Assembly: GCF_054482525.1 (NCBI RefSeq)
Contig: NZ_CM137006.1
Length of the DNA stretch: 64,000 bases
Strand: one strand, 5' to 3'
Positions 9,631 to 25,231 of the stretch are shown piece after piece (the first letter of the stretch is position 1; each line of letters starts with the position of its first letter). Both the position numbers and the translations under genes were made by a program. Under the pieces are notes generated by a model. The model was given only the letters and a program-made list of their open reading frames with translations. It did not search any database and was not told the origin of the DNA.

Positions 9631-11631
9631 TCATCCTTGTTGCTGAAGCATGTGGAATAATTGTTCGCAAAGCAAAACACCGTTATTCATTGCTTCTACC
9701 CGTGCCTCGCTTTCTGTATTACAAAATTGTGCCAACACATGTGCCAGCCGATAAAAACCGACCGCGGTGAGGTCATTCGCCAGCAACTCTGCCTGACCAA
9801 TAGCACTCTGTTCCTGATAGCGCCAGCCGTTATGGAGCAGTTGAATAAGTAACGCCTGGCAGCGCATCAGCAACTGATGAGCGGTAGACGGCACAGGCAG
9901 AACGCTGGCAGAAGGTAGCGGTGCCACAGGCGCAGTTTCTGCGTCCAGCGCCCAGGCGCGGGTTTTGGTCATCATTACCCGTGGTTCCAGTGTCAATTGC
10001 CCCTCAACAAAACTGACAAAGCCAGAAACCAGACTCACGGGGTCGTCTGTGTGTTGCAAAAGTGCCGCCATGCGTTCAACGGCAAAAGGCGCGCTGGCTG
10101 AGGCTGGCAGTGATAAAGTCAGCAGATTATCTTCACCTTCGCCGCTGATTACCTGCGCATCCAGCGTCTGGCGGCTGCTATCCCAACCGAGTGAAATACA
10201 CTCAGCGACTGGCAGAATAAATAAGTTATCCACCTGATTAAGAGGCCGTATGCAGGCGGGGGGACGCTGGCGTAAATATTCCCGCAAAGCCACAATGCCC
10301 GACTGGCGCAATGGCGCGCTCAACATTTGCCAGGCGTCTGGCGACAGCGGCACAACGCTGCTTAAGCGGTTGCGGGTAGCTAACAACAGCTCGCCATCGG
10401 CACTGCGTTTTGCTGCTTGTGAAACAATTTGCCCACCTGCCAGTGCGCCAGCCAGAAAACTAAACAGCCGACGCGTCGCTGCCGGTGAGTTTTCCTGTTC
10501 GCTTCTCGGCCAACTACGCGAAAGATGCAAAATACTGCCAGTGTCGGGATCGGTAAACCAGATGCGTAAACCATAATGCTCAATATCCTGCCAGCAACGC
10601 ATACCTAAAGACACCAGCCGCAGATGATCAAGCTTTGCTTCTCCGGCAATGCCAGAGCCAACGACCGTGCGCCACGGCACAGGAGGAACTTCACCAACAC
10701 TGTCGCGCCGGGCCATCTCTTGTGCGCAATTTAATCGACTGTTTAATGCCGCAAGCTGACGTAAGCATTCTCCGACATGATAGTGGCTGGCGCGGGCGTG
10801 GAAGGCATCAACGCTGGCGCGCAGTTGCCGTAGCGATTCACTCACCCAGCGCCAGTTGCAGCGTTCCGCCGCTTGCTGCGCGCGGCTGAAAGCAGCCTTG
10901 TAATGAATAAGCGGCTGGCTGATGCCGCCAAGCCATAACGCCTGGCTTAATTGCTGAACATATTGACGACACGCGTCGCCCTCATCGTTGGCAAACGGAT
11001 CGTCAGATGATGTGACGTGTTCGCTGCGCATCTGCCAGATTAAATGAGTAAATTCCGCTTGCTGCGCTTTGGCCTGGACAAAGGCCTGTACTGCCAGTAC
11101 GACATGTTCGCAAAGTGTGCCGTCAATACAATCACAGCGTGCGAAACGAATGCTGCTGCGGGAATAAAAACGTACATCGCTCATCGGTAAGCGGGCAGAG
11201 GGAATTTCGCCCGGCGTACAGAACAACTCAATGGTGATGCCTTTAGCGACCAGTGTCTGTGCGCGTTTGCGGGTGGCATCGGGCAGGGTAGCCAGTTCTT
11301 CCAGCCAGATTGCCGGATCCCACTCTTCTTCTTTTTCCGTAGGCTGGGTGGTGGCGCAAAGTCGCTGATAACTTAAAACCAGCATCACGCGATGGCGGCA
11401 CATGCCGCTGGCCCCGCAGCTGCATTGAGCCTCTTTCAGTGCCTGACCGTTCGCCAGCTGGGTGCGGACACCGTCACTGAAGGTGGCGATTAAAGCGCCG
11501 TTCTCATGGCTGATTTCCGGGACGTTGCCATTTTCCAGTTCTTTAAGGCTGCGCTTAACAAAACCGGCATTGCTTAACGCCGTCAAAGCTTGTGGTGTCA
11601 GTTCTAATAATTCCGGCCGTAGTGAATTCAT
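9631..11631 (-). CDS. yehQ: SWIM zinc-finger protein, last gene of yehLMPQ
   Basis: Two CxC..CxH SWIM motifs (CSCGASGMCRH and CDCIDGTLCEH). The ATG overlaps the yehP stop (ATGA at 11628-11631), which suggests translational coupling. K-12 may annotate a shorter start. Confidence 0.85.
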   Translation of the reverse strand: MNSLRPELLELTPQALTALSNAGFVKRSLKELENGNVPEISHENGALIATFSDGVRTQLANGQALKEAQCSCGASGMCRHRVMLVLSYQRLCATTQPTEKEEEWDPAIWLEELATLPDATRKRAQTLVAKGITIELFCTPGEIPSARLPMSDVRFYSRSSIRFARCDCIDGTLCEHVVLAVQAFVQAKAQQAEFTHLIWQMRSEHVTSSDDPFANDEGDACRQYVQQLSQALWLGGISQPLIHYKAAFSRAQQAAERCNWRWVSESLRQLRASVDAFHARASHYHVGECLRQLAALNSRLNCAQEMARRDSVGEVPPVPWRTVVGSGIAGEAKLDHLRLVSLGMRCWQDIEHYGLRIWFTDPDTGSILHLSRSWPRSEQENSPAATRRLFSFLAGALAGGQIVSQAAKRSADGELLLATRNRLSSVVPLSPDAWQMLSAPLRQSGIVALREYLRQRPPACIRPLNQVDNLFILPVAECISLGWDSSRQTLDAQVISGEGEDNLLTLSLPASASAPFAVERMAALLQHTDDPVSLVSGFVSFVEGQLTLEPRVMMTKTRAWALDAETAPVAPLPSASVLPVPSTAHQLLMRCQALLIQLLHNGWRYQEQSAIGQAELLANDLTAVGFYRLAHVLAQFCNTESEARVEAMNNGVLLCEQLFHMLQQQG

Positions 11632-12764
11632 GACTGAAGATTCTCCGCAAGCCAGGTCGCCAGTTCGCCCGGCGTCATGGCGGCTATTTGTGCGCCGACA
11701 TTAACCAGCGCCTGGGCCGTATCGTGGTCATAGCAAGGTGTTGCGGTGCTATCGAGCGCCGCCAGTCCCAGTACTTTGATGCCGCTCTGGACACACTTTT
11801 TCACCTGATGCGTCAGTAATGATGATGAACCCCCTTCGTAAAAATCGCTCACGAGGATAATGACGCTTTTCGCTGGTTGTTCAATAAGTTGCCGACCATA
11901 TTCCATGGCACTGGCGATATTGGTTCCGCCGCCTAATTGCACTTTCATTAATAACTCTACCGGATCGGCAACGTCTGCCGTGAGATCAACCACGCTGGTG
12001 TCAAACGCCACCAGATGGGTACGAATACCGGGTAACTGCCATAAACAGGTCGCCATCACCGCTGAGTGGATCACCGAGTCCACCATTGATCCGCTTTGAT
12101 CAACCAGTAAGACCAGTTGCCATTGTTCACTGTGGCGCTTAATGCGGCTGTTAAAGCGGGGGGATTCGATATACAACTTGCCGTGTTGCGGATGCCAGTG
12201 TTGCAGGTTGGCGCGCAGCGTACTTTTGAAATCAAAGTTTCGCGCCAGTGGAATAAATGAGCGGCGACGGCGATCGCGGACACCAGAAAAAGCCTGACGA
12301 ACTTCCTTTGCCAGTCGCGCCATAATCTCTTCAACAACCTGGTGCACTATCCGGCGGGCGGCAGCCAGCACTTCGGGATTCATCAGATGTTTAGTGTGCA
12401 AAACGGCGCGTAGCAGGCTTTCAGAAGGCTGCATACGTTCCAGCACGTCGAGATTCGTCACCACATCTTCAATGCCGTAGCGCAGTACGGCATCGCTTTC
12501 CAGCCGCTCGATCACCTGTTGCGGAAACAGCGTGTGAATACTGTTGATCCACTTAGGGGTGGTGAGATTTGAGTCACCTAATCCACCGGAGCGTTCACCA
12601 CGCTGGAGCCGTTCAGGATCGCGCCCATACAGCCACTCCAGCGCGTGGTCTATCTGCCGGGCATTGTCATCCAGCCCACAAAGGGTCGTTTCTGCCGCTT
12701 CGCCAAGAATTAATCGCCAGCGATGTAGCTCACGGGTGGTCAGAAGATCGTTCAGTTCAGACAT
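11628..12764 (-). CDS. yehP: von Willebrand factor A (vWA) domain protein
   Basis: Start at MSELNDLLTT (378 aa, as in K-12 YehP). MIDAS-like motif LLVDQSGSM. The start overlaps the yehM stop by 8 nt. The ORF-track N-terminal extension to 12992 is rejected. Confidence 0.9.
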   Translation of the reverse strand: MSELNDLLTTRELHRWRLILGEAAETTLCGLDDNARQIDHALEWLYGRDPERLQRGERSGGLGDSNLTTPKWINSIHTLFPQQVIERLESDAVLRYGIEDVVTNLDVLERMQPSESLLRAVLHTKHLMNPEVLAAARRIVHQVVEEIMARLAKEVRQAFSGVRDRRRRSFIPLARNFDFKSTLRANLQHWHPQHGKLYIESPRFNSRIKRHSEQWQLVLLVDQSGSMVDSVIHSAVMATCLWQLPGIRTHLVAFDTSVVDLTADVADPVELLMKVQLGGGTNIASAMEYGRQLIEQPAKSVIILVSDFYEGGSSSLLTHQVKKCVQSGIKVLGLAALDSTATPCYDHDTAQALVNVGAQIAAMTPGELATWLAENLQS

Positions 12765-15036
12765 GGAAAACTCCCCAGTGTTGCAGCGATGCCAGTGCCT
12801 GCTGTTCGAGTTGTTGATGATGTGCAATGGCTTGCGGTGGACAATGCAACGGCATTTGCAGCGCTGAAACGGGAAGCTGTGCGAGCTGGTAATGCTCAAG
12901 CACCTGATGCGCCAGCGTCCCGCGTTCTCGTGGTGGTAGCCAGGCCATCGCCGCACGCAAATCGGGCAGGGCGTTAATAAAATCGTCGTCACTCAGTTGA
13001 TTTAAATGACTACTGAAACCGGCGATAAATGCCGGCTGACAGGCCAGTTGATGGCGGGCCAGCGCCAGCAAACCGTGCAGTGCCTCGCCGGATTGTGCCG
13101 GGGATAATTGCGCCAGCATCGTCAGCGCCGCTTCGGCACTGGCGTTGGGATGTTCCAGACGCATCAGTGCGCCAAGAGCCGCGCCGCGATCCAGCGCCGA
13201 GGCATGAATCGCCTGACTGCGGCGCTCAAGTAAGGCTACCGCCGCAGAAAGCGAAACGCCGGGTAAATTAACGCCGCTATGTAGATCGCGCAGGATATGG
13301 CAAAGCGCCTGCCAGCTATGCAGGTGAGCGTGAAACTCCTTTTCCTCCGGTCTGCCGTTGGATTCACACAGCCAGAGTGTGCGATCGATAGCCGCGCATA
13401 ACGTCGTCTGTAATATCTGCGCGCCTTGCATACCGCTAATTTCATCCAGCCGCCATAAGGCGTATAGCACTTCCAGCGCCTGGCCCATTTCGGCAAACTG
13501 ATTTTCCTGGGCGATTAATAATGTAAGTTGCTCCAGTAATTGTTGACTGAAGGACGCCAGACCCGCTAACGCCGCCTGGCTAAGACATGTGGTGATACTG
13601 CCGATTCCACCCGCGTCCAGCATATCGGCTTCTAATTTATTGCGTGCGGCTTCCTGGAGTGTGGCACCAAAGCAGGCGGCCTCAATTAATGCCGCATGTT
13701 GGCTAAGCGGGCGGGTTAATTTCCAGCGTTCTTCACCGTTGCCTGCAAGTGTCAGTGTACTTCCCTGCTGGCGCACAACCCCTGGGATCTCCAGTATTGC
13801 CAGCCGATGTAACACCTGACTTTGCGCTAGTCCATTGGGGTTAAAGCGATTTAAGGTAAGCTCCGCCGGAAGAGAGATTGCGGTACGTTCCAGTTCGCAG
13901 GTGACATCTTTTGGCAGAGGCGGTTGTGGCGTAGAAGGGGCAAGTTTACCGAATCCGTCACCCGCTAATGTGTCTATCAACGTTAGCAGAATCGGATCGG
14001 TATCGGGATGAATAACGCCGCGATAGCTCCACGGCAACGGCGCATTCAGGGCTTCTTTAATCAGCGAGCCTGCTATGGCATCCAGCCAGTCAGTGCGTAA
14101 CGGTAGTGTATGACCGCGCAACTGTGCCAGTGCCATCGCATGCAGATGAGCGGCAGCCATATCCGCTGTTGAAGCAGGCAAGTGGTGCTGGCGCAAACGG
14201 GTAAGAACCGTTTTCAGCAGTTGTTCACCTGCCTGCTGCAAGCCCCACCGCCAGCACCAGTTTTGCCAGACCGGGGCAGGCATACCGGAAAGGTATCCTG
14301 CCAGCACATCAAGGCGCTTTTCACTGTAGGGTGTGAGATAACAACCTGTAACGGCATCATCCAGTAAGAGCAATTCTGGCGTGTTAATTACCTGCGGACA
14401 TTCGCGCCACATTTTTGCCAGTGCCGGAGCGTGCCAGCCACCGCAGACAACTAACACGTCGCCATTATTTTGCTGCATCGCCCATCCAATCCAGCGGGCC
14501 ATAAAGGCTTCGCGCTGACGATTGAGAGCATCTCCGGGGGAGTCGCCCCGCAGTTGGGCAAAATAGTGCGCAAGTGCAGAGGGTAATGCAGTTTGCTGCC
14601 TTTCATCTTCGAACAAGTGATCCCACAGGGTGTCGCTGTTATCCATGCGGGTGGCACGCAGCAGCAAGGTCTGGCTTTCCTCTTGCGTATCAGGCGAATC
14701 GTCCTCTTCTTCACTCTGCGCCCAGCAAGGCAAATCGATGAAGTAAGTTTGTGCCTGAATACGACGAGCGGCTTGTAGCGCCTGCCACTCCGGCGAAAAT
14801 TCAGCAAATGGCGTCCAGGCACCACGCCCGGGGGCCGCACCGTCCTGATACTGGCAATAACTGTAAATAGCTACCGGAAGCTGGTGGGCTAACAACAGTT
14901 CGTCTACCCGGTCATTAAAATCAGCCGGGCCTTCAATCAACACATATCGTGGCCGCTGGCTTTCGATTAACGATTTCACCAGCCGGGCGCAGGCCGGACT
15001 ATGATGCCGGATGCCGACAATTAACGGCTCGCTCAT
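12757..15036 (-). CDS. yehM: large uncharacterised protein of the yehLMPQ operon
   Basis: Start at MSEPLIVGIRHHSPACARL (759 aa, as in K-12 YehM), preceded by an AGGAAA Shine-Dalgarno that contains the yehL stop codon. Confidence 0.9.
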   Translation of the reverse strand: MSEPLIVGIRHHSPACARLVKSLIESQRPRYVLIEGPADFNDRVDELLLAHQLPVAIYSYCQYQDGAAPGRGAWTPFAEFSPEWQALQAARRIQAQTYFIDLPCWAQSEEEDDSPDTQEESQTLLLRATRMDNSDTLWDHLFEDERQQTALPSALAHYFAQLRGDSPGDALNRQREAFMARWIGWAMQQNNGDVLVVCGGWHAPALAKMWRECPQVINTPELLLLDDAVTGCYLTPYSEKRLDVLAGYLSGMPAPVWQNWCWRWGLQQAGEQLLKTVLTRLRQHHLPASTADMAAAHLHAMALAQLRGHTLPLRTDWLDAIAGSLIKEALNAPLPWSYRGVIHPDTDPILLTLIDTLAGDGFGKLAPSTPQPPLPKDVTCELERTAISLPAELTLNRFNPNGLAQSQVLHRLAILEIPGVVRQQGSTLTLAGNGEERWKLTRPLSQHAALIEAACFGATLQEAARNKLEADMLDAGGIGSITTCLSQAALAGLASFSQQLLEQLTLLIAQENQFAEMGQALEVLYALWRLDEISGMQGAQILQTTLCAAIDRTLWLCESNGRPEEKEFHAHLHSWQALCHILRDLHSGVNLPGVSLSAAVALLERRSQAIHASALDRGAALGALMRLEHPNASAEAALTMLAQLSPAQSGEALHGLLALARHQLACQPAFIAGFSSHLNQLSDDDFINALPDLRAAMAWLPPRERGTLAHQVLEHYQLAQLPVSALQMPLHCPPQAIAHHQQLEQQALASLQHWGVFHV

Positions 15037-15046: not shown

Positions 15047-16135
15047 TCACGGCAGGCGGTGGCGAGCTTGATAATAAGCCTGCCAGTGAGCTTCTTTATG
15101 TGTGGCGACGCGCTGTTCGAAGTAACGGCGCAGACGCGCGCGATCTTCTTCGTTATCTTTGACGATGGTTCCGGCAATACAGTCCACCAGGTCGGCAGGC
15201 TCCCCCGCGCGATTCGCTAAAAACCAGGCGCGGACACCCACAGCATGGGCCACGTTAACGGCTTCAGCGGTGGACATAATCGCTGTCAGTGTATCCATTG
15301 ACGTTTTCTTTTCGCCGTTGGCACGCAGATCGCGGAACGTGCGCACCAGTAATTCCAGTACCGTGTCAGGCACTTTATGCGGAATACCGCTATGGGCCAG
15401 CAAACGCGCCGAAGCACTGGCGACCAGTTCCAGCTCCTGGGCGAAATCCATAATCGGAAAGACAGTTTCAAAATCGAAGCGACGCTTTAGCGCAGCACTC
15501 ATTTCATTGACGCCGCGATCGCGGGTATTGGCAGTGGCAATAATATTAAAGCCTTCTCGCGCATAGAGCTGACTGGCTTCACCAGTGAGTTCCGGCACCG
15601 TCATTACCCTGTCAGAAAGCATACCTAACAGACAGTCTTGTACTTCCAGCGGTGTACGCGTTATCTCTTCAAAACGGACAATTTTGCCGTCGCGCATTCC
15701 CTGGTAAAGCGGGGCTGGGACCAGCGCTTCCGTTGACGGACCATGGTTGATAAGCAGGGCGTAGTTCCAGCCGTACTTGATTTGATCTTCAGTGGTAGAT
15801 GCGCCGCCCTGGATGGTTAACCCGGCATCGCCGCTAATAGCGGTTGCCAGTAATTCAGACAGGAGAGATTTTGCGGTGCCAGGTTCCCCCACCAACATCA
15901 AACCGCGCCCGGTTGCGAGAGTGACTAACATGCGTTCGACAGCGGAGGGGCTAATCACGACTTTACGGCTAATATTTTGTGCTTCGTCGCCAAGGATAAA
16001 AGCGCGGGCCGCAGGCAAACTTAACTGCCAACCTGGCGGGCAAGGTGCGTTATCATTTTGTTTTAATTTTGCCAGTTCATCGGCGTATAACACAGCGGCA
16101 GGCGGACGCTGCAGATGATTATTCTGCGGTGACAT
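15047..16135 (-). CDS. yehL: MoxR-like AAA+ ATPase
   Basis: Start at MSPQNNHLQ (362 aa, as in K-12 YehL). Walker A GEPGTAKS and Walker B/sensor region IVRFEEITRTPLEVQDCLLGML, typical of MoxR. Confidence 0.9.
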   Translation of the reverse strand: MSPQNNHLQRPPAAVLYADELAKLKQNDNAPCPPGWQLSLPAARAFILGDEAQNISRKVVISPSAVERMLVTLATGRGLMLVGEPGTAKSLLSELLATAISGDAGLTIQGGASTTEDQIKYGWNYALLINHGPSTEALVPAPLYQGMRDGKIVRFEEITRTPLEVQDCLLGMLSDRVMTVPELTGEASQLYAREGFNIIATANTRDRGVNEMSAALKRRFDFETVFPIMDFAQELELVASASARLLAHSGIPHKVPDTVLELLVRTFRDLRANGEKKTSMDTLTAIMSTAEAVNVAHAVGVRAWFLANRAGEPADLVDCIAGTIVKDNEEDRARLRRYFEQRVATHKEAHWQAYYQARHRLP

Positions 16136-16244
16136 ATATTCATCCCTGAAATGTATTAATGAAATAAACGATATTTTACGCGCAATAAATGTTTGGCGCA
16201 TTAGTTGTTTGAGCGAAAAATATCTGGAAAGCAGATCACAGTAA

Positions 16245-16329
16245 ATAAAAAAACCTGCTGGTGAGGCAGGTTCTTTGATTTACTACTTTCAGGCCTAACA
16301 CCACGGCCTGTGCAACATCGTGTTCCAAC
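16245..16329 (-). ncRNA. orzO: Orz-type antitoxin sRNA (predicted), copy 1
   Basis: Minus-strand promoter TTGCAA-17-TATAAT (-10 at 16336-16341). Minus-strand intrinsic terminator: stem 16252-16258/16266-16272 followed by a U-run. The 5' 20 nt (16310-16329) are complementary to the zor 5' UTR (16476-16495) with 1 mismatch. Ends are predicted, and the O/P naming is arbitrary. Confidence 0.65.
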
Positions 16330-16335
16330 GAACGA

Positions 16336-16386
16336 ATTATAACCATCGGTGGACCCCGTTGCAATTAAGATAATGAGATTTATAAT
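16336..16386. promoter_or_regulatory. divergent back-to-back sigma70 promoters for orz (minus) and zor (plus) sharing one palindromic -35 hexamer
   Basis: TTGCAA at 16359-16364 is its own reverse complement. TATAAT sits 16 bp downstream on the plus strand (16381-16386) and 17 bp downstream on the minus strand (16336-16341). The same layout occurs in copy 2 (16945-16995). Confidence 0.6.
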
Positions 16387-16566
16387 CCTGACTGTTGGGA
16401 CGTTGCGCCGGATCGAACCCATTTCAAGTCCTGGCTACCGGACGGGTGGTGCCGCAGGTAGTGCCCTGATCCGGAGTGCAACATCGTGGTCCAACATACG
16501 TAAACCAGTATCGACAGGCAGTGTAAGGGTAAGGTGCTGGTGTTGCGCTCCTTAATAAGGAGAGCG

Positions 16567-16656
16567 AATGGACACGCTGACACAAAAGTTAACCGTGCTC
16601 ATTGCTGTACTGGAGCTATTAGTGGCTCTGTTACGGTTGATTGATTTGTTGAAGTA
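16567..16656 (+). CDS. zorO: 29-aa hydrophobic type I toxin peptide (Zor family), copy 1
   Basis: Hand translation gives MDTLTQKLTVLIAVLELLVALLRLIDLLK*, which I recognise as the ZorO toxin described in E. coli O157:H7. Shine-Dalgarno AAGGAG lies upstream, and a long structured 5' UTR is predicted from about 16393. Confidence 0.8.
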
Positions 16657-16680
16657 ATGGGCAAATTGAAACGCAACTAA

Positions 16681-16703
16681 GGGGGAAAACCGCTTCCCCC
16701 TTT
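16681..16703 (+). terminator. intrinsic terminator of zor copy 1
   Basis: GGGGGAA-aaccgc-TTCCCCC stem-loop followed by TTT. Confidence 0.7.
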
Positions 16704-16852
16704 AATAAAATGATTACATCTTCCATTAATTCACCCGATAACTTTTTTCATATTTATAAATTCATCGATTTTATAATCAACGTACTATTTGGCCGGGATG
16801 TGAATAATCATGGTGGGCTATTGGCGAAAAATATCTGGAAAGTAGATCGTAG

Positions 16853-16938
16853 AAAATAAAAGAACCTGCTGGTGAGGCAGGTTCTTTTATTTACTACTTT
16901 GATGTTAAGTTACTGATAGTGCAACATGGCATCTCAAC
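16853..16938 (-). ncRNA. orzP: Orz-type antitoxin sRNA (predicted), copy 2
   Basis: Same architecture as copy 1: minus-strand -10 at 16945-16950 and terminator stem 16861-16869/16877-16885. The 5' 20 nt (16919-16938) match the cognate UTR at 17085-17104 with 2 mismatches. Confidence 0.6.
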
Positions 16939-17176
16939 GAACGAATTATAACCACCGCTGGACCGTGTTGCAATTAAGATAATGAGATTTATAATCCTGA
17001 CTGTTGGGAAGTTGCGCCGGATCGAACCCATTTCAAGTCCTGGCTACCGGACGGGTGGTGCCGCAGGTAGTGCTCTGATCCGGAGTGCAACATGGCGACT
17101 CAACATACGTAAACCAGTATCGACAGGCAGTGTAAGGGTAAGGTGCTGGTGTTGCGCTCCTTAATAAGGAGAGCGG

Positions 17177-17266
17177 ATGGACACGCTGACACAAAAGTTA
17201 ACCGTGCTCATTGCCGTACTGGAGCTATTAGTGGCTCTGTTACGGTTGATTGATTTGTTGAAGTAA
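17177..17266 (+). CDS. zorP: 29-aa type I toxin peptide (Zor family), copy 2; peptide identical to copy 1 (one synonymous change)
   Basis: Hand translation is identical to copy 1 (GCT to GCC, both Ala). Assigning O or P to a given copy is arbitrary. Confidence 0.78.
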   Translation: MDTLTQKLTVLIAVLELLVALLRLIDLLK

Positions 17267-17289
17267 TGGGCAAATTGAAACGCAACTAA

Positions 17290-17312
17290 GGGGGAAAACC
17301 GCTTCCCCCTTT
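17290..17312 (+). terminator. intrinsic terminator of zor copy 2
   Basis: Same GGGGGAA-aaccgc-TTCCCCC-TTT hairpin as copy 1. Confidence 0.7.
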
Positions 17313-17387
17313 AATAAAGTAATATTCTATTAGTTGGTTGAATATATTCTGTAGTTTACGATTAAAAATTGCTATTACAGTTTCAGG

Positions 17388-17639
17388 TTATTCACCTCGT
17401 AATTTCCGCTCATCAATACACTCATCTCTTATATAAATCAACGCATCATTTATTAGCGGGTCAACATCCTCTCGATCACGTTGATGAAATGTTGGACGTA
17501 GCCGGAACCGTTCCAGTCGGTAAACGGAACCTGTAAATAATTCAGAGCATTTATGGATCTCAAGTCTGAAGGAAAACGGATCTTCAGGTACAGGGACCTC
17601 ATAATTGTAAATAGCGACCAGCTCTTTTTGCACGCTCAT
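17388..17639 (-). CDS. yehK: small uncharacterised protein between yehI and the zor/orz module
   Basis: 83-aa ORF co-oriented with yehI, at the position of yehK in K-12. K-12 YehK is longer as I recall, so the symbol rests on position only. Confidence 0.5.
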   Translation of the reverse strand: MSVQKELVAIYNYEVPVPEDPFSFRLEIHKCSELFTGSVYRLERFRLRPTFHQRDREDVDPLINDALIYIRDECIDERKLRGE

Positions 17640-17699
17640 CGCTTTTCCCGATGGTAAGTCGTGTTGATAACGGGCAGTCGCATCACTGCCCGTTGTGTT

Positions 17700-20600
17700 T
17701 TAATGGAAAATGACGTCGGGTGCGCTTAACGCCTCACTCAAATCAAACACATCAAGTTCGGCAAAAGTGACAGATTTATTGTCACGGTATACATGAAGAG
17801 AACGGAAGCTCATTAGCGCTTTGCTATCAACATTGTAGTGGTTAAAACCGGATGAAAACTTAAGGACCAGCCGGTACTCGCCCAGGTCATAGACAAATGC
17901 GTTCTCATAGCCTGACTCCCAGCCTTTGTATCGCATTCCCATAAGTTGCCCAACGGTAGCAGATTTACCTTCCCAGCGATTCAAACTATTACTGGCTGAC
18001 TCGTCAGGCGTGAGCAGTACTGTGCGCCGTGCCAATTGGCGAAAAGGCGGCATAATTTCGTAATCGGCAAAAAGCTGTGCAAACTCACTGCGCATTTCTG
18101 CTGCCATTTCTAACGGGTGGGCAATGCCAATCAGAGCATCGGCAGGCAGGTCAATTGGCTCATCTTGCTCATTGCAGAACTCCCCCTCAGCGGCCACACG
18201 AAAGGCGTTGAGTAAACGACGCGGTTCATTTGCCGGATAAACACCCCATATTAATCGCTGAGTAACCAGACGGGTAAAGGGATGATTAACAAACAGAGAA
18301 TGAAAATCTGCCAGCGACCAGCGTCGGGTGGTGCGCAGGGCAGTTTCAAGACGCGGGAGCAGGTTTTTGCTCACCTGAGTGGCATCTTTTTTTAGCCCTT
18401 TTAGTCGGGCCAGTGCCTCGGGTGCTTTCAGTTGATCGTCATCGGCGCGCAACCGGGGAACGCTTTTCTGGCGAACGTTTTGCTGATCAAAGATAACCGG
18501 GTTAAGGTTTTCATCGAAGCGAACGGTAAATTGCCGTGGACCAAAATCAAAAATCAACGCCTGCGGATCATCAAGACCCAGTGTTGGGACTAATCTGTCC
18601 GCTAACTGTTCCTGGCTTAGCCCTCGATTTTCTGCGACCACCTGAAGAAATTCCGCCGCGTTATCACGTAAGGGGCGGGATTTCGCCCGTTGCGATATAT
18701 GATGCAGCTGTATCAGTGCCATATCATTATTCATCTGAGTAAGGATGTTCAGGCCGCTGACGGCACGGGCAGATTTGCCTTCCTGTGGCCAGGCAAGGAT
18801 CTGTGTTGTTAGATCCCGTGCCGTGCTTTCGTCGCCAAAGAGACTTAACGCCAGAAATGCCCAGTTGTCTTTTGCGGGAGCACCAGCTTGTTGCCACGCG
18901 GTGAAAAGATCCCAGGCAAAGGCTGCCAGCGTTTGCGGCTGGCAAAACGTTTTCAGCTGTTCCAGTCCGCTATAAAAACGTCCGCCCTGGGTAAAGCGCA
19001 GCATTTCGCCGATAATTTCCAGAGCGTCATCAGTAACAGGTTGATTATTCGTGATAAGGCGCGGCCTGGACCACATTGCCGGCTGCCAGAAATCAGGGGC
19101 TTTTGGAATGCGTGTCGGGTAAATCTCTATTGGACTCTGTTTAAGTAATTGCTCCAGGGCAGGCCATACATCTTTACGCTGCCAGCGGTTTGCCACGGTT
19201 TGCAGTAACTCGCCATGTCCCTGTTCGTAAAGTAAACGCAGGGCAAGTAATGCAGCTTCGCTATTATCGCTGGATTTGGTGAAGACAAGAGGGATAAGTG
19301 CAGTAGCTGTATGTTCCGGCCATTGTAAAATCCACTGGCGGGCCAGATCTCGCTGCGCCGCGAAACGTCGCCAGACGCGGGCAACGGGCAGGGCCAGTTC
19401 GGTTGCGCCGAAATTTAAAATTAACGGAAATGTTTCTTTTGGACGATGTGAAAAAGCCAACAGCAGACCTGGTAGAGCATCCAATCCGAAGATACTGAGA
19501 AAATAGTCCTCACCCGCAGACAGATGCTTTTTCTCATTGATACGTAGCCAGAAAGTCAAAGCCATCTCACGCGGCAACTGCGCCAATAAATACAGGTTCC
19601 AGATACTCTTTTCCCGACGATAGCGTGAGTAGCTGTCATTTTCCCATATGTTAATTAACACTTCTACGTGACCGCTGTGAAGCGCCTGTTCTGCTAATTG
19701 AGCTTCCGGGGAGCTCCAGCCATTCATGATCTCTTCAACCCGCCCTGGGTAGTAATGCCACTGAACAATGAGTGAATTGCGTGCAGCATCCAGTTTTCCG
19801 GGGAGTATATAATTCAAAAACAGCCATACATCATCTCCAAAACCCAGCTCCTGTAGTACAACTCGTCCACTTTTTTGTTCCATGCGTTCCGCAAGAGATT
19901 CCGTGCTGAAATAACGGGCAGACGCAGTGGCGGCAAGCCTCTCTCGTTCGCCTGGTTGCCAGTAAACTTGCGGCGTTAATTCGAACGGTGCCAAATCAAG
20001 ACGTGGAACTGTCATTTTTTTCTTACTACGCCACGGTGGTGAAACGAGGATTTCAGGCATTTGGCTGTTATCGGTGCTATCAATAACCGTTTTGGACGGT
20101 GCCGATAAATAACTATTCAGCATTGCCCGGGCTTGAGTACTTAACCACGGCATCACCTCTTCTGCCAGTTGTGGCTGCGATGCCATCAGCGTTTGTAACA
20201 GCGTACGCCAGTATTCATCGCGTGCTTTTTGCTGTGCAGGCAGCTTTTTGTCTTCAATGATTGGATAACCAGGGCGCGCAGGTGGTTCTTTTAACGCCAG
20301 CAGTTCTGCTAATGCGGCGAGCGTCGCATGGGGGAAGTTTTTACTGTATTTAGCCACACGTTGCAGGCTGGGTTTGTTTTTATCAGCAACTAACAGCAAG
20401 GTGCGGATGACTTGCGGATGGTTAATTTGTACCAGCAGACTGCCGCAATCTTCTTTATGGGCATACATCGCGAGGCGCGGAACGGCTGCCAGTCCTTGTT
20501 CGCGCAAAAGGGCGGCGCAGGCCGCGTAGCCGAAGCGGTTTTCTTGTGACATGTAGCTGGCTTCGCGATCGCTAAATACGTCCAGGCCCCAGTATCGTTC

Positions 20601-21332
20601 GAGTTTTTTTACCGCCGTATTATCAGTAGCAACGACCTTTAACCACTCCTTTGAATGGAGACTTGACCGGGAGCTTTCAAAACTGGCGAGTTCATTGGCT
20701 ATTTCAGGTTTTTCCGGGAGGATCAGCGCAATAAAAGGACGGCGAATTTTGGGTATTCCTGGCAGTGCGGCAATGAGTTTATCGGCACAACGCTGCCAGC
20801 AACTTTCCTCTGCCAGCGACAGATGCTTACGCAAACGGAGATCGAAATCGTTATAGGTCGCGGAGCCATAACCGTAGCTATAGTCCTCGTCCTGATACTG
20901 CAAAGTGACGACCAGTGAGTCACTCTCATAACGCCGCGCAATGCACTGACGCGATATCACTACATCCGTCGCATATTCCAGCCCCTCTTGTTGCACGATT
21001 TCATCAAGTAACTGCTGGCTGTCATTTTGCGCGATACAGATCAGAGCCGCCATGGTAAGGGCTGGGATTGACGGTTTATGCTCGCCAGTCAAATTGATTG
21101 CCTGCTGGATGGCGGACTGCCACTCCAGTGAGCATTTATCATAATTCCAGGTGATATTTTCCTTCTGGCCTGCTTGTTGTAGTAATTCATCTCCCAATGT
21201 CTGGATGAGACTTCCAGTGATAACGGACACTGGTTCGCCCGGCCAGCGACGATGACTGAGCGGCGTTTTGCCTTTTTTATATTTCAGTTCCAGTTGGGCG
21301 TTATCCGCCAGCCACGGTAATTCCTTGTCCAT
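17700..21332 (-). CDS. yehI: 1210-aa DUF4132-type protein, paralog of MolR
   Basis: Same length as K-12 YehI. It shares long conserved blocks with the upstream 1249-aa ORF, for example FGPRQFTVRFDE and LFADYEIMPPFRQL. Confidence 0.9.
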   Translation of the reverse strand: MDKELPWLADNAQLELKYKKGKTPLSHRRWPGEPVSVITGSLIQTLGDELLQQAGQKENITWNYDKCSLEWQSAIQQAINLTGEHKPSIPALTMAALICIAQNDSQQLLDEIVQQEGLEYATDVVISRQCIARRYESDSLVVTLQYQDEDYSYGYGSATYNDFDLRLRKHLSLAEESCWQRCADKLIAALPGIPKIRRPFIALILPEKPEIANELASFESSRSSLHSKEWLKVVATDNTAVKKLERYWGLDVFSDREASYMSQENRFGYAACAALLREQGLAAVPRLAMYAHKEDCGSLLVQINHPQVIRTLLLVADKNKPSLQRVAKYSKNFPHATLAALAELLALKEPPARPGYPIIEDKKLPAQQKARDEYWRTLLQTLMASQPQLAEEVMPWLSTQARAMLNSYLSAPSKTVIDSTDNSQMPEILVSPPWRSKKKMTVPRLDLAPFELTPQVYWQPGERERLAATASARYFSTESLAERMEQKSGRVVLQELGFGDDVWLFLNYILPGKLDAARNSLIVQWHYYPGRVEEIMNGWSSPEAQLAEQALHSGHVEVLINIWENDSYSRYRREKSIWNLYLLAQLPREMALTFWLRINEKKHLSAGEDYFLSIFGLDALPGLLLAFSHRPKETFPLILNFGATELALPVARVWRRFAAQRDLARQWILQWPEHTATALIPLVFTKSSDNSEAALLALRLLYEQGHGELLQTVANRWQRKDVWPALEQLLKQSPIEIYPTRIPKAPDFWQPAMWSRPRLITNNQPVTDDALEIIGEMLRFTQGGRFYSGLEQLKTFCQPQTLAAFAWDLFTAWQQAGAPAKDNWAFLALSLFGDESTARDLTTQILAWPQEGKSARAVSGLNILTQMNNDMALIQLHHISQRAKSRPLRDNAAEFLQVVAENRGLSQEQLADRLVPTLGLDDPQALIFDFGPRQFTVRFDENLNPVIFDQQNVRQKSVPRLRADDDQLKAPEALARLKGLKKDATQVSKNLLPRLETALRTTRRWSLADFHSLFVNHPFTRLVTQRLIWGVYPANEPRRLLNAFRVAAEGEFCNEQDEPIDLPADALIGIAHPLEMAAEMRSEFAQLFADYEIMPPFRQLARRTVLLTPDESASNSLNRWEGKSATVGQLMGMRYKGWESGYENAFVYDLGEYRLVLKFSSGFNHYNVDSKALMSFRSLHVYRDNKSVTFAELDVFDLSEALSAPDVIFH

Positions 21333-21341
21333 GCTCTTTCC

Positions 21342-24300
21342 TTATTCAAACAGGGCTTCAATATCGTTAATTAGCTCGCTGGCGGTGATGGCATCGAGTA
21401 CGGAGAGCTGCGCTTCCTGTGTTGAATTACTCCTCCAGCCATAGCTTTCTGCTTTGCCTTCCCATAGCCACAGCTTGCTTAAGATTTGCTCGGCACTCAG
21501 TTCGGCTGGTGACATACCCACCGCAAAACCTTCATCGATTTCCATGATTAACGACCAGCGGCCCAGAGGTTTGATCATCCAGCCGATCCAGCCTGCATCC
21601 AGCGGGGTGCCCTTTATCCAACCTTTATTCGCCAGTCCCATGACCCGACCGCTCGGGCATTTTCTGCCTGCCCAGCGGATCAATTCGCTGGCATTGCGCT
21701 CGGTTTCTGTCAGGGCGTAACTGTTACGGTCGAGCTGGCGAAACGGCGGTAGCAGTTCGTAGTCGGCAAAAAGCTGACCAAAGGCGGCAGCATCCGTGGG
21801 TGATATTTCCAGAACGTGAGGAATACCAACAGAGATATCGCCTTCCGGCGGGGTGAAAAGATCATCGTCAGCGGTGCTGTAGCTGTTATCTTCCGCCACG
21901 CGAAAGCAAGCCAGTAGCTCGTTTTCGGCGCTATAAACGCCCCAAATCAGACGGCGGGTTAAGTGACGAACCAGCGGATGCTCAACCAGGAAGAGCTGAA
22001 AGTTTTCCGGCGACCAGCGGCGGCGCAGGCACATGGCGGATTCCAGCCTTGCTACCTGCTGGGCGGCGACGGTACGCGCATCTTTTTTCAGCAATTTGTA
22101 GCGGTTAACAGCATCGTTCGCCTGTGATTCATCATCGCTTTTATTGGGTTTAGGTAAGTCTTTCAGGCGGCTGCCGGAAACATCGCGCACAAACGGTTTT
22201 AAGGTTTCATCAAAGCTGACGGTGAACTGCCGTGGGCCAAAATCCAGCAGCAGCGAACCGTTATCATCCAGACCGAGATCCGGTGCTAACCGGTCTTCAA
22301 GTTCCGCCACCGTGAGTTCGCGGCTCTCGGCAATGTCGGCAATTTTTTCTTTCGCCCGCTCCTGTAAGGCTTTGAATTTCAGTTTCTGGGCGATGCCGTT
22401 AAGCTGCATCAGGGCGATATCGCTGCCGATAGCAGCGAGAATATCCAACCCAACGGTGGCACGTTTATGCTGAGATTCGCCAGGCCAGGCGCGGATTAAT
22501 GGCGTCAGTTTGCGGGCGGCGTCATCGTTACCGAGAACGCCTAACGCAGTGAACGCCCAACTCTCTTTCGACGGCGCGCCAGCGGTCTGCCAGGCGGTAA
22601 ACAGATCCCAGGCAAATTCAGCCAGTGAGTCGGCGGTACAGGCATCTTTCACCTGCAATAATCCCGGATACAGCGCCTCCTCCTGATGGAAGCGGAGCAT
22701 TTCACCGAGGTGCTGGAGTGCGCTATCGGGCAGTGATTGGGCGCTTGCTTTTAATACCGGGCGGTTCCAGAGCGATGGCTGATAAAAGGCCGGAAGAGTG
22801 GGGATTTTTGTCGGGTGATTATCTAAGGGATCGAGCGCAAGCAGAGCGTTCACCGCGTCTGTTACTTCCGGCTGGTTATAACGCCGGGCGATTTCTTGCA
22901 GTAATGGCTGATGACCGTTTTCGGTAAGCATACGCAAGGCAGCGCGGGCGTTATCCTGTGCTTCACCGGATTTGCCGAGCGCCGAAGGTAGCAGGCCGGT
23001 AATGGCGTGTTCCGGGTATTTCAGCAGCCAGGTGCGGGCGTCTTGTCGTAGGGTTTTGAGTTTGTTGAAGGCGCGGGCGATCAGTGGCGCTAATTCGATA
23101 GCCGCAAAATATTGTGCTACAGGCAGAGCTTCTTGTGGATAGCGTGAAAAGGAGTGAATAAAACCCTGTAACCCAGTGAGTTGCAGGTGCGTCATGACAA
23201 ACTCGACACCGACGTGTGGCTCTTTACTGAGGACATTCCACGCCTGCGCTGTCTTTTCGATAGGCAGGGTGGCTAACATGTAAAGCTGCCATTCCCGTTG
23301 ATAGGAGTGCCAGAAGGTTTTAAATTCGCTGATCAGCGCGGAATAATGTCCCCTTTGCCAGAGATCTATAGCAGCATCAGGCGCTTTCATATACTGGCCA
23401 TTATTCCAGCGATTGAAACCCAGACGTGCCAGGTAGTTCTGAATATCCTCTTTTTGGCCGATGTCTATTTGATGTGCGTGCCAGCGATGCCTTGCATGAA
23501 TCTCTTTTTCTGCCGTCTCGGTCAATGTGCAGCATGACTCCAACGATAATGGCGTTAAATCCAATACCGGTATAACAGATTTTTTCTTTTTCGAAAGCCA
23601 GGGCGGTGAGACTAATACGGCAGGCAGTAGATCGGCGCAGGCATGGTTTGAGGGCTGTGTCAGTTGTTGCAGGCATGCTTTCAGCACTGCAACTGCGGGT
23701 GTTGAGAGCCAGGGAGTGACCTGTTCTGCTAGTGCCGGTTGCGAGATAAGCATCGTCATTAGCATAATGCGCCAACTATTCTCTTCTTTTTGCGCAAGAA
23801 GTTCCGCCAGTGCCGCCAGTGCCGTGTGTGGGAACGCAGCGCAAGCCTTAGTCATTCGTTCATGGCAGCGTTTAGTTTTGCCAGACACACGTATAAGTAG
23901 CATTAATGCTTGTGGGTGATTGATCTCTGCGAGAATACTTCCGCAAAGATCAGCATAAGCATAGGGGGCGAAGCGAGCGATTCCGGCAATCCCTTGCTCC
24001 TGCAAAACGGTGACATTCCAGATGCAACCATGGTAATAGTCATTAAAAAGGTCGTACGCGCAATAAGATTCCAGTGCTTTGAGCAAGGAAGATTCTTGTA
24101 CAACAAGTTTCAGCCATTCAACAGTTTGGATATTTTTCTGCTCCAGTAACCGTCGTGCGATTTCTTCTGCAATCTCCGGGCGTTCCGGTAGCATTAGCGC
24201 TACCATCGGTTGTTGAACGGGAGGAATATCAGGCAAAGCTGTAATGAATTTATCTACACAGCGTTGCCACAAAGTTTCTTCTGCTAGAGCCAAATGTTTA

Positions 24301-25091
24301 CGCAGTCGAACGTCAAAGGGGGTAACACAATGTGCATGGTTTAATAATGGCTGAAAAGTAATGTGTATGCTTATTCTGTGATAAGTGCAATCGAACGAGA
24401 TATATTGCATGGCAATAAACATATCCACGGCAAATTCTAGTCCGTAGACATAGACAATTTCATCCATGAGTTCAGGGCATTCGTCCCAGAATTTACGTGA
24501 AACCAGAACAACCTGTACAGCCAACGCAGCAGGAGAAAGTGGACCATTAGCGAGAGCTTCATTGATATTCTGCTGCCAGTTAGCAGAACATGCACTGAAA
24601 TCGTATGTTGTTATTTTTCCTGATAGATTATGAATATCCTGACCTAAATTCATAAGGAGGCTGTCTTGTGGTTCGCTTACAGCATCCCCAGGAAAACGTC
24701 GGGAAGGTAAGGCCTCCTGAGACTTTTTCTCCGATAGATGGATAGTGGAATCATCTGTCAGCCACGGGCATGGTGTCTCAGCAGGTTCAGCAACCATACT
24801 TTGGTCAAATACGACTGTGGTTTCTGCCACGCCAGTTGTATCTACTTCGATCGTTTCTATTTTGATTGCGGGTTGGGATGGCGAAGATAATTCTTCCACA
24901 TACCCCTTCTTCACCTTCTCCGCAATCAGCTTCAGTCCCGCTTTTTCCGCCGCTGCTGCATCCGCAAAGCTTTTTACCTGGTTTTGCCCTTTGGTGCCAA
25001 CTTTTCCCCAACAGATATGCAACTCGTTTCCCTGTTGCTCCACCGCCCAGAATTTATGTGATTTTTCGTCCTGAAAGATAAAGTGCCTCAT
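21342..25091 (-). CDS. molR: 1249-aa WGR-domain plus DUF4132-type protein (intact here; split pseudogene in K-12 as I recall)
   Basis: N-terminal WGR-like motif (KFWAVEQQGNELHICWGKVGTKGQ). It is an uninterrupted ORF at the position of molR/yehH. Confidence 0.85.
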   Translation of the reverse strand: MRHFIFQDEKSHKFWAVEQQGNELHICWGKVGTKGQNQVKSFADAAAAEKAGLKLIAEKVKKGYVEELSSPSQPAIKIETIEVDTTGVAETTVVFDQSMVAEPAETPCPWLTDDSTIHLSEKKSQEALPSRRFPGDAVSEPQDSLLMNLGQDIHNLSGKITTYDFSACSANWQQNINEALANGPLSPAALAVQVVLVSRKFWDECPELMDEIVYVYGLEFAVDMFIAMQYISFDCTYHRISIHITFQPLLNHAHCVTPFDVRLRKHLALAEETLWQRCVDKFITALPDIPPVQQPMVALMLPERPEIAEEIARRLLEQKNIQTVEWLKLVVQESSLLKALESYCAYDLFNDYYHGCIWNVTVLQEQGIAGIARFAPYAYADLCGSILAEINHPQALMLLIRVSGKTKRCHERMTKACAAFPHTALAALAELLAQKEENSWRIMLMTMLISQPALAEQVTPWLSTPAVAVLKACLQQLTQPSNHACADLLPAVLVSPPWLSKKKKSVIPVLDLTPLSLESCCTLTETAEKEIHARHRWHAHQIDIGQKEDIQNYLARLGFNRWNNGQYMKAPDAAIDLWQRGHYSALISEFKTFWHSYQREWQLYMLATLPIEKTAQAWNVLSKEPHVGVEFVMTHLQLTGLQGFIHSFSRYPQEALPVAQYFAAIELAPLIARAFNKLKTLRQDARTWLLKYPEHAITGLLPSALGKSGEAQDNARAALRMLTENGHQPLLQEIARRYNQPEVTDAVNALLALDPLDNHPTKIPTLPAFYQPSLWNRPVLKASAQSLPDSALQHLGEMLRFHQEEALYPGLLQVKDACTADSLAEFAWDLFTAWQTAGAPSKESWAFTALGVLGNDDAARKLTPLIRAWPGESQHKRATVGLDILAAIGSDIALMQLNGIAQKLKFKALQERAKEKIADIAESRELTVAELEDRLAPDLGLDDNGSLLLDFGPRQFTVSFDETLKPFVRDVSGSRLKDLPKPNKSDDESQANDAVNRYKLLKKDARTVAAQQVARLESAMCLRRRWSPENFQLFLVEHPLVRHLTRRLIWGVYSAENELLACFRVAEDNSYSTADDDLFTPPEGDISVGIPHVLEISPTDAAAFGQLFADYELLPPFRQLDRNSYALTETERNASELIRWAGRKCPSGRVMGLANKGWIKGTPLDAGWIGWMIKPLGRWSLIMEIDEGFAVGMSPAELSAEQILSKLWLWEGKAESYGWRSNSTQEAQLSVLDAITASELINDIEALFE

Positions 25092-25196
25092 TCTGCATCC
25101 CTGTAATTTTATCCAGTTGAATGCTGATGCTACCAGTATTTATGCGGGTTAGAGAGAGACAAAATCGCAAGAAAACAACTTTAGGAATTTATAAAG

Positions 25197-25220
25197 AAAA
25201 GGCGCTGTCGATACAGCGCC
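25197..25220 (-). terminator. intrinsic terminator of metG
   Basis: GGCGCTGT-cgat-ACAGCGCC stem with a T-run on the minus strand (the A-run at 25197-25200 on plus). Confidence 0.7.
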
Positions 25221-25231
25221 TTGAAAGGAGA

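Follow-up and report, generated by a model that had tools for sequence, protein, structure and literature searches.

MolR and YehI of Escherichia coli as candidate variable subunits of a five-component MoxR/VWA module conserved across bacterial phyla

Introduction

The closest described relatives of the system considered here are pairs of a MoxR-type AAA+ ATPase and a VWA-domain protein, and the system itself is built around molR and yehI, two very large adjacent open reading frames (ORFs) in a 64,000-nucleotide stretch of Escherichia coli DNA (contig NZ_CM137006.1 of assembly GCF_054482525.1; the whole stretch is hereafter the window). As a rule, each MoxR-VWA pair characterised so far serves the maturation of one particular enzyme complex (PMC3893208; PMC7159879), and such pairs also form the core of other predicted conflict systems (PMC7159879). 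E. coli K-12 has only two MoxR ATPases, RavA and YehL, the latter being the type member of one of seven MoxR subfamilies (PMC3893208). We argue here that MolR and YehI are interchangeable adaptor or sensor subunits, the variable part of a five-component MoxR/VWA remodelling machine, a reading to which we give a probability of roughly 0.55.

Part of this ground is familiar: annotation exists for the genes and their domains, YehL gives its name to a MoxR subfamily, and molR is listed as an SOS gene. We know of no function assigned to the YehL subfamily since its definition in 2006, and a search of the literature returned no functional study of DUF4132, DUF5682 or the yeh genes.

Two intact paralogs in tandem

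Both genes lie on the minus strand of the window, the orientation of which is reversed relative to the K-12 map. The molR-type gene (21342-25091) encodes 1249 amino acids (aa) and yehI (17700-21332) encodes 1210 aa; each opens with ATG and runs uninterrupted, translation revealing no internal stop in either. Their junction reads TAA-ggaaagagc-ATG, where the 9-nt spacer carries the Shine-Dalgarno-like GGAAAGAG. The DNA is that of E. coli: MolR is 100% identical to WP_001215558.1 of E. coli SCU-102, and the molR region is likewise 100% identical to that of SCU-102. The two proteins align colinearly from residue 109 of MolR and residue 6 of YehI to close to both C-termini (BLASTP, 708 bits, E = 0, 444/1180 identities, 38%), which as sequence similarity is far above chance. 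YehI is the WGR-less paralog. It begins exactly where the common core starts, at a conserved 'PWL' motif that in MolR comes after the WGR domain and a linker. The parts of the two proteins referred to below are as follows.

24891..25079, minus strand: WGR domain (MolR aa 5-67, motif WGKVG; Pfam PF05406)
24342..24890, minus strand: hypervariable cassette A (MolR aa 68-250), an unalignable linker and the first folded alpha/beta-helical module of the core
23892..24341, minus strand: moderately variable region (MolR aa 251-400)
23142..23591, minus strand: hypervariable cassette B (MolR aa 501-650)
21345..23141, minus strand: conserved C-terminal module (MolR aa 651-1249), HEAT-like repeats and then the alpha/beta DUF4132 region
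21618..22175, minus strand: DUF4132 match of MolR (Pfam, aa 973-1158)
17919..18473, minus strand: DUF4132 match of YehI (Pfam PF13569, aa 954-1138, 160.6 bits)

In MolR the WGR match scores 65.3 bits against a gathering score of 22 and the DUF4132 match (PF13569) 170.5 bits against one of 27; Pfam finds no WGR in YehI. An earlier sequence-only reading of this DNA had described two adjacent, full-length and intact paralogs 9 bp apart, sharing long colinear blocks, with WGR in the upstream protein alone. Its coordinates proved exact, the three peptide pairs that it quoted all fall inside the 1180-aa BLASTP alignment, Pfam bears out the uneven distribution of WGR, and no frameshift in molR had been overlooked. 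It was also right that molR is broken in K-12 and a single ORF here, the upstream gene of K-12 being annotated as yehF (b2115, 'PF05406 family protein') plus the pseudogene yehH (b4499). Its remark that some 7.4 kb of coding DNA has no known biochemical activity holds as well, in that no solved structure, curated family or paper assigns one.

The WGR-type motif of MolR reads WGKVG, with Lys in place of the motif Arg. MolR residues 2-79 align with PDB entry 2ra8 (2ra8_A) at E = 8e-18 as a single sequence and at E = 1.2e-22 as a profile, and for the WGR domain of PARP3 (2eoc) the corresponding values are E = 0.2 and 1.3e-4 (family profile). The NCBIfam model LIC_11051 matches MolR in the WGR domain only. 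The WGR fusions encountered comprise DUF4132 solenoids, the leucine-rich-repeat protein of 2ra8 and Upf1-like helicase/restriction-endonuclease proteins. Weak Pfam likeness at E up to 5, sought in thirds of the proteins and in YehM, YehQ and YehK, yielded nothing meaningful, and the unusually long relatives showed only WGR and DUF4132, apart from one fusion to a histidine kinase (possibly a gene-call artefact) and one to GntR.

A WGR domain of the same type also stands on proteins of about 1830 aa in Cupriavidus and others, joined to an Upf1-like superfamily-1 helicase (DUF4011, AAA_11/12/30) and an MTES_1575 restriction-endonuclease-like domain. Judged by their domains, these proteins appear to be another WGR-headed nucleic-acid machine.

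A five-component module conserved across phyla

Four genes further along the same strand encode the putative partners of MolR and YehI, among them a VWA protein with an intact metal-ion-dependent adhesion site (MIDAS).

15047..16135, minus strand: yehL, MoxR-type AAA+ ATPase (AAA_5, 119.2 bits) with Walker A GEPGTAKS
12757..15036, minus strand: yehM, DUF5682 protein (Pfam, 326 bits)
11628..12764, minus strand: yehP, VWA protein (VWA_CoxE, 235.8 bits) with an intact MIDAS, DQSGS, at residue 222
9631..11631, minus strand: yehQ, 666 aa, Pfam SWIM, with two CxCxnCxH motifs at residues 70 and 166

The closest PDB sequences to YehL are the AAA domains of Midasin/Rea1 (E 6.6e-10 to 6.2e-9); no relative of YehM was found in the PDB.

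Conservation was surveyed by scanning one genome per species, which gave 76 loci from other species on which homologs of the window proteins were mapped. YehL, YehM, YehP and YehQ all adjoin one or more DUF4132 genes, co-oriented with them, in 53 of the 76 loci, so that the test which the sequence-only reading had set itself, a lack of co-occurrence with yehLMPQ, does not refute the single-system idea. At least one of the four lies next to a DUF4132 gene in 58/76 (five of these being cut by contig ends). The 18 loci without any partner comprise six that are not assessable and about 12 true orphans, with no yehLMPQ homolog within 6-10 kb; two of the orphan DUF4132 loci lie in genomes that hold the full system elsewhere. 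The loci belong to Pseudomonadota, Actinomycetota, Acidobacteriota and Myxococcota, and a Bacillus mycoides plasmid adds a fifth phylum. Gene order is [WGR-DUF4132]n-[DUF4132]-L-M-P-Q in Enterobacterales, Burkholderiales, Holophagales and Myxococcota and L-M-[WGR-DUF4132]-P-Q in Methylobacterium and Acetobacteraceae, where the DUF4132 gene sits inside the operon; in a Thermoanaerobaculia genome two DUF4132 genes bracket L-M-P-Q. Independent Pfam/RefSeq annotation returned the five-gene set in 6/6 further contexts (Streptomyces, three other distant genomes or metagenome bins, an Iodobacter plasmid and the Bacillus mycoides plasmid), often with 4-bp gene overlaps. That the DUF4132 genes and yehL, yehM, yehP and yehQ form one system is well supported, and we regard it as highly probable. 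The DUF4132 family comprises 5882 clusters at 50% identity (E <= 1e-3), most of which align to the C-terminal ~600 aa only.

Outside this set, a metagenomic relative of 1832 aa (WGR + DUF5724 + DUF4132 + DUF7737) with Planctomycete-like flanks has no YehLMPQ within 10 kb.

The conserved neighbourhood bears directly on the historical label, by which MolR would be a transcriptional regulator of molybdate metabolism and YehI a duplicate with a related regulatory role. What speaks for it is the name only, which some sources keep as 'molybdate metabolism regulator' or 'MolR family transcriptional regulator' after Lee et al. 1990, as cited in PMC4245954. Neither protein has a DNA-binding helix-turn-helix or other regulator domain, the architecture is that of a 1200-aa solenoid, and the conserved neighbours in every phylum examined are an AAA+/VWA machine, not molybdate genes. 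The K-12 gene, moreover, is a pseudogene, and K-12 is the strain in which molybdate metabolism has been extensively studied. We give this label next to no credence.

Diversification of MolR and its paralogs

MolR types were compared over 118 Escherichia representatives. Among E. coli alleles the two ends of the protein are well conserved, with 80-96% identity over aa 1-50 in the WGR domain and 91-97% over aa 651-1249. In between, cassette A (aa 68-250) occurs as five types that are 14-41% identical, save one pair at 75%, aa 251-400 as three types at 47-61% and cassette B (aa 501-650) as three types at 38-47%. Types of cassettes A and B are reassorted in at least seven combinations, making the E. 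coli MolR proteins mosaics. Two origins for this pattern were considered and rejected. Replacement by non-homologous cassettes fails because the cassette A types are homologous, matching one another by BLASTP at 1e-58 to 1e-129 over aa 68-400. Gene conversion from yehI fails on identity to YehI, which is 14-28% over aa 51-250 and 18-23% over aa 501-650 in every allele class.

Relatives outside the species point to another source. The Klebsiella ortholog, at 56-58%, resembles cassette A of the window more closely than the other E. coli types do, and those other types match different tandem paralogs of E. whittamii or Klebsiella. DUF4132 paralogs number from one to at least eight per locus, and tandem arrays can fill all of the sequence retrieved, with 7-8 genes in Massilia frigida and M. 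rubra and five in Klebsiella sp. MISC125. The number varies within E. coli as well: a small sample of complete genomes held one intact molR copy, two intact copies or pseudogenes, and two molR-like genes stand upstream of yehI in E. coli AR_0372 and Ecol_AZ162 (both intact) and in O157:H7 9234 (both pseudogenes). In AR_0372 yehI itself is truncated, which may correspond to the TnMB1860 insertion of sequence type 131 (ST131) described in PMC9334617. The MolR 'alleles' have the look of what is left of an old tandem paralog array after sorting and recombination, with C-terminal halves that stay similar to one another.

Protein divergence from K-12 increases outward from the core of the module. 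Nonsynonymous divergence (dN) is 0.004 for yehL, 0.012 for yehP, 0.016 for yehM, 0.021 for yehQ and 0.042 for yehI, against 0-0.0045 for the flanking housekeeping genes, and the divergence of MolR is far above that of YehI. Synonymous divergence (dS), followed over window positions 12000-28500, is uneven, at 0.04-0.08 in yehR, btsRS and mlrA, 0.11-0.18 in metG and apbC, 0.13-0.19 in yehLMPQ and 0.23 in yehI, where the first 300 codons reach 0.5, a pattern suggestive of haplotypes, old or imported, with the DUF4132 genes at their centre. The dN/dS of yehI is 0.19 overall, with a peak of ~0.6 in codons 401-600 and values of 0.03-0.16 in codons 801-1200, ratios by which the C-terminal half appears to be under clear purifying selection.

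Could all of this be decay? Decaying relics without present function, in which cassette diversity reflects neutral sorting and recombination of old tandem paralogs, would account for the pseudogenes seen in K-12, a K-12-like laboratory strain, O157:H7 and Shigella, for the truncation of yehK here and of yehQ in K-12, and for the transposon that ST131 sublineages tolerate in the locus (PMC9334617); a dN/dS below 1 fits it too. Two uninterrupted ORFs of 3.6-3.75 kb would nevertheless not outlast neutral decay, the E. coli clusters, among them those with 931 and 1361 members, are made up largely of full-length proteins, the C-terminal half is constrained in both proteins, as the 91-97% identity of MolR and the codons 801-1200 of yehI show, and the five-gene set is kept across phyla. 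A purely relict status is on this evidence very unlikely.

Predicted fold and invariant residues

Two AlphaFold2 models, both of MolR, were built from a 38-sequence alignment. The model of aa 760-1249 has a mean predicted local distance difference test score (pLDDT) of 91.7 and a predicted template modelling score (pTM) of 0.84, and that of aa 100-1249 has values of 86.9 and 0.67. In the models a small alpha/beta-helical cap is followed by a helical solenoid up to about aa 935 and then by the alpha/beta region that carries the DUF4132 match. The solenoid consists of antiparallel helix pairs stacked over hundreds of residues, as in HEAT/ARM-type proteins, with clear HEAT-like repeats at aa 789-934, and the region of cassette A is also folded. 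For the DUF4132 alpha/beta domain no solved structural analogue was found. Family-wide conservation is limited to the C-terminal ~600 aa, and about 13 positions, mostly Arg, Asp, His, Tyr and Glu, are invariant across phyla, all of them in the C-terminal module; D933, D1076 and E1239 are examples of invariant acidic residues.

These residues invite a reading in which the roles are exchanged, MolR and YehI being the clients and YehLMPQ a MoxR/VWA maturation chaperone, like CoxD/E, NorQ/D or CbbQ/O, that activates them or inserts a cofactor. The invariant charged residues of DUF4132 would then form an active site. Such a role would be in keeping with the one-enzyme habit of the characterised MoxR-VWA pairs and with the membership of YehP in the CoxE-type VWA family; besides the ~13 invariant positions, many others hold Arg, Asp, His, Tyr or Glu almost without exception across phyla, and a fold without a solved analogue leaves room for an active site. 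An enzyme is not expected, however, to carry ~650 aa of hypervariable solenoid, to exist as one to eight interchangeable paralogs or to be lost repeatedly while its chaperone is kept. No weak Pfam likeness to any catalytic family was seen, and the WGR domain is left unexplained. We consider this exchange of roles improbable.

The SOS box and a possible role in defence

25099..25118, minus strand: LexA (SOS) box AACTGGATAAAATTACAGGG, an exact match ending 7 nt before the molR ATG

The query was a sequence that we take to be the molR LexA box of Fernandez De Henestrosa 2000. No match to AACTGGATAAAATTACAGGG is expected in shuffled sequence, and the background rate of LexA boxes is 9/2328 windows. 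The core of the box departs from CTGT-N8-ACAG at one position (CTGG), and an exact search for CTGT-N8-ACAG misses it; the sole exact match in the window, at 38817-38832, lies within an integrase-bearing insertion. A LexA box at the same position, ahead of the first WGR-DUF4132 gene, is present in other Escherichia species and in Klebsiella, and none was found at that position in Erwinia, Serratia, Zymobacter or Betaproteobacteria. Published work agrees with the box: molR is on a list of LexA-regulated genes with a known SOS box (PMC6590174), and the transcript of yehF, the K-12 fragment, rises about 2-fold after DNA damage, with a log2 fold change of up to about 1.1 (PMC11002266). The SOS link appears to be real but lineage-specific.

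SOS control of molR is one of several features that would suit a dedicated defence against phages or other mobile elements, in which diversified WGR-solenoids would sense foreign protein or DNA and the AAA+/VWA core would arrest growth or destroy the invader. Birth-and-death evolution, with arrays of up to eight paralogs and copy-number and pseudogene polymorphism within E. coli, is of this kind, as are the reassorted cassettes, far diverged from one another and matched by different paralogs in sister species, and the patchy occurrence of the complete five-gene set across five phyla. On the mobilizable 77-kb plasmid pl1 of Iodobacter fluviatilis the module (two DUF4132 genes, AAA, DUF5682, VWA and SWIM) is flanked by insertion sequence elements and directly followed by a type I restriction-modification system with a PDDEXK nuclease, and the place of MoxR-VWA pairs at the core of predicted conflict systems has been mentioned above. 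Against this, 0/7 proteins match any PADLOC-DB v2 model at E <= 0.01, and no recognisable effector domain (nuclease, protease, TIR or pore) is present in them. The locus also has a fixed place between the housekeeping genes metG and yehR in more than 98% of 5426 E. coli genomes (5330-5406), and in Klebsiella too, and its flanks in four distant genomes are metabolic or regulatory genes. Finally, the module occurs in 0/50,697 phage genomes and in 27/72,556 plasmid records, several of which are mislabelled chromosomes or megaplasmids. A dedicated defence role, which would read the same architecture in a biologically more specific way, is a minority possibility. Membership of a known defence system was rejected, there being no PADLOC match.

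A working model for the Yeh module

How might proteins so variable serve a core so conserved? In the reading that we prefer, the invariant core would consist of YehL (MoxR AAA+, midasin-related), YehP (VWA, intact MIDAS), YehM (DUF5682) and YehQ (double SWIM zinc finger), and MolR and YehI would be scaffolds of ~1200 aa, each a long HEAT-like alpha-solenoid ending in the conserved alpha/beta DUF4132 domain. We infer a constant dock and a variable head because the C-terminal ~600 aa alone are conserved family-wide, while the cassettes are 14-47% identical and reassorted. The constant C-terminal half, HEAT repeats and DUF4132, would dock on the core, most simply by presenting an invariant acidic residue to the YehP MIDAS, by analogy with the clients of Rea1, CbbQO and RavA-ViaA. 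The fast-diversifying N-terminal solenoid would act as a specificity head that chooses what is bound, and in the MolR type the N-terminal WGR domain may contribute to target selection, WGR being a module that binds nucleic acid in PARPs. The YehL ring, by hydrolysing ATP, could then remodel or extract the bound target, or switch the solenoid itself, in midasin-like work. In Escherichia and Klebsiella the expression of the WGR paralog from a LexA-controlled promoter would link the input arm to DNA damage, or to foreign DNA that comes in or is induced. We put this mechanism, comprising docking through the MIDAS, nucleic-acid sensing by WGR and the target so recognised, at slightly less than an even chance. 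What the analysis shows directly is the relationship of the two paralogs, their domains and class of fold, the conserved module with its changing gene order in different phyla, the way in which the proteins diversify and the SOS box.

Several observations weigh against reading MolR and YehI as adaptors or sensors of such a machine. The DUF4132 alpha/beta domain, with its many invariant Arg, Asp, His and Glu residues, could be an enzyme and not a docking surface. About 12 of the 76 loci are orphans, and the Planctomycete-type relative of 1832 aa stands alone; an adjacent core is thus not required for the family to persist, and perhaps not for it to act. The LexA box is limited to Escherichia and Klebsiella, and the SOS link is therefore not a property of the family. 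Laboratory culture and some lineages do without the genes, as pseudogenes in K-12, O157:H7 and Shigella show. The dN/dS of yehI fits relaxed constraint as well as diversifying selection on the N-terminal half, and no interaction data among Yeh or DUF4132 proteins were found in the literature searched.

Beyond this lies a more far-reaching version, which we hold to be doubtful. The Yeh module might be an unrecognised, horizontally mobile surveillance machine. Its receptors, WGR-headed solenoids from a repertoire that can be enlarged, would recognise nucleic acid-protein complexes that are damaged or foreign, and would pass these on to a midasin-like AAA+/MIDAS extractor split between YehL and YehP and acting with YehM and YehQ. 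Bacteria would on this view have their own equivalent of PARP-style break sensing coupled to AAA+ extraction, with a receptor diversity kept up by paralog birth-and-death and cassette reassortment. Bacterial surveillance systems would gain a new architectural class, and the WGR domain a new role outside PARPs, should WGR-solenoid sensors indeed feed an AAA+/MIDAS motor.

What this analysis brings out as the real unit is a five-component module, the parts of which keep together in at least five phyla, and the 7.4 kb of 'DUF' coding capacity is its diversifying and probably specificity-determining part. In the available literature we found no description of this module as a unit conserved across phyla, nor of the fold of DUF4132 proteins, the diversification of cassettes and paralogs, or K-12 as a partial natural null.

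The state of the locus in K-12

In K-12 two components of the module are damaged. Besides the broken molR, yehQ has a premature stop at codon 615 that leaves 614 aa, short of the 666 aa of the window and of the range of 650-720 aa in other phyla. K-12 is in this sense a partial natural null, which may, speculatively, explain why no function has been assigned there; work in a strain with an intact locus would bring this question about the best-studied of bacteria within reach of a test. Deletion of K-12 'molR1' (b2115 = yehF) in combination with a lepA deletion causes synthetic slow growth, the doubling time rising from 22 to 33 min, and is complemented by lepA (PMC4245954). This could be a polar effect next to metG.

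Neighbouring genes and transcription

After metG the minus strand carries molR, yehI, yehK, a gap of ~1.25 kb and then yehL, yehM, yehP and yehQ. The features around the module are the following.

25232-27274, minus strand: metG, upstream of molR
25199..25222, minus strand: metG terminator-like hairpin, a 10-pair stem and then a T-run, dividing metG from the molR promoter region
17388..17639, minus strand: remnant of yehK, in which a stop at codon 84 leaves 83 aa against the 105 aa of K-12
16213..17311, both strands: zorO-orzO / zorP-orzP tandem type I toxin-antitoxin insertion between yehK and yehL

The yehK gene starts 60 nt past yehI and is marked as a pseudogene by RefSeq in the identical strain. 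Among the loci mapped, YehK homologs are confined to Escherichia and Shigella, and YehK is therefore placed outside the conserved module. The sequence-only reading had set the two large genes directly upstream of yehK and yehLMPQ and co-oriented with them; the orientation and the adjacency of yehK stand, and the adjacency of yehL does not, since yehL begins ~1.25 kb past yehK, beyond zor-orz.

The zor-orz locus is built on a tandem 609-nt repeat. It holds two OrzO-P antitoxin small RNAs (Rfam; 16247-16322, minus strand, 91.9 bits, and 16858-16931, minus strand, 90.2 bits) and two identical 29-aa ZorO/ZorP toxin ORFs on the plus strand (16568-16657 and 17177-17266), reading MDTLTQKLTVLIAVLELLVALLRLIDLLK. 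It is found in most E. coli and is missing from MG1655 (Fozo 2010, PMC2887945). The insertion interrupts the Yeh system and is not a part of it.

Published work gives molR a promoter of its own, which BglJ-RcsB activates and H-NS does not repress (PMC3950696). In hns/stpA mutants the repression of yehL and yehM is lifted, by way of an intergenic site for H-NS (PMC3686432). In the window strain the interval from yehK to yehL also includes two OrzO small RNA genes and their terminators. With a promoter in front of molR that answers to LexA and BglJ-RcsB, with H-NS acting on yehL and yehM, and with the OrzO genes and terminators in between, transcription from molR to yehQ as one unit is unlikely in E. 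coli. The yehLMPQ genes appear to be under separate, H-NS-sensitive control.

Elsewhere in the window, at ~36100-40200 beyond rcnR, lies the small integrase-bearing insertion noted above, with a tyrosine recombinase, an HNH endonuclease, a helix-turn-helix protein and a recombinase-family protein. It adjoins an annotated thiamine pyrophosphate riboswitch.

Comparison with known systems

As a member of the LexA regulon, molR is typical in having an SOS box, conserved in Klebsiella, and in the modest induction of yehF by DNA damage. It is unlike other members in its CTGG box core, in the weakness of the induction and in the lack of the box outside Escherichia and Klebsiella.

The WGR domain has parallels of two kinds. 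Among bacterial WGR-repeat proteins, the Bacteroides fragilis protein of PDB 2ra8 (WGR plus leucine-rich repeats) also has an N-terminal WGR at the head of a repeat scaffold, and the Leptospira LIC_11051 family may be compared. PARP-type WGR proteins differ more, since MolR has no PARP catalytic domain and, in E. coli, reads WGK in place of WGR.

The vWA-MoxR-VMAP ternary conflict systems (Kaur, Burroughs, Iyer and Aravind 2020, PMC7159879) share with the Yeh module a MoxR-VWA core, repeat-rich (HEAT/TPR) diversifying components and a patchy distribution. Unlike them, the Yeh module has no VMAP component, and YehP has no effector or extra domain; the bpMoxR model scores 18.3 bits in Yeh proteins, under its cut-off of 27 bits. 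Membership of this group was rejected, as its defining features are absent and PMC7159879 makes no mention of Yeh, SWIM or WGR.

By its sequences the Yeh module would fall among systems of the MoxR AAA+/VWA kind. Like RavA-ViaA, CbbQ-CbbO, NorQ-NorD and CoxD-CoxE, it has an AAA_5/MoxR gene beside a gene for a VWA protein with an intact MIDAS. It differs from these pairs in adding three obligatory partners, the DUF4132 solenoid or solenoids, the DUF5682 protein and the double-SWIM protein, in encoding no client enzyme complex nearby and in having a DUF4132 component that is multiplied and hypervariable.

Midasin/Rea1, a eukaryotic AAA+ motor of ribosome assembly, includes the nearest solved relatives of YehL, and its AAA_5 ring with a MIDAS that grips a client through an acidic residue follows the logic proposed here for the Yeh module. 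In midasin six AAA modules and the MIDAS are joined in one chain of 4700-4900 residues (4717-4910 in PDB entries), unlike the separate small proteins of the Yeh module, and the clients are assembly factors with ubiquitin-like domains and not DUF4132 solenoids. The resemblance is one of working principle, suggested by the similarity of the ATPase sequences.

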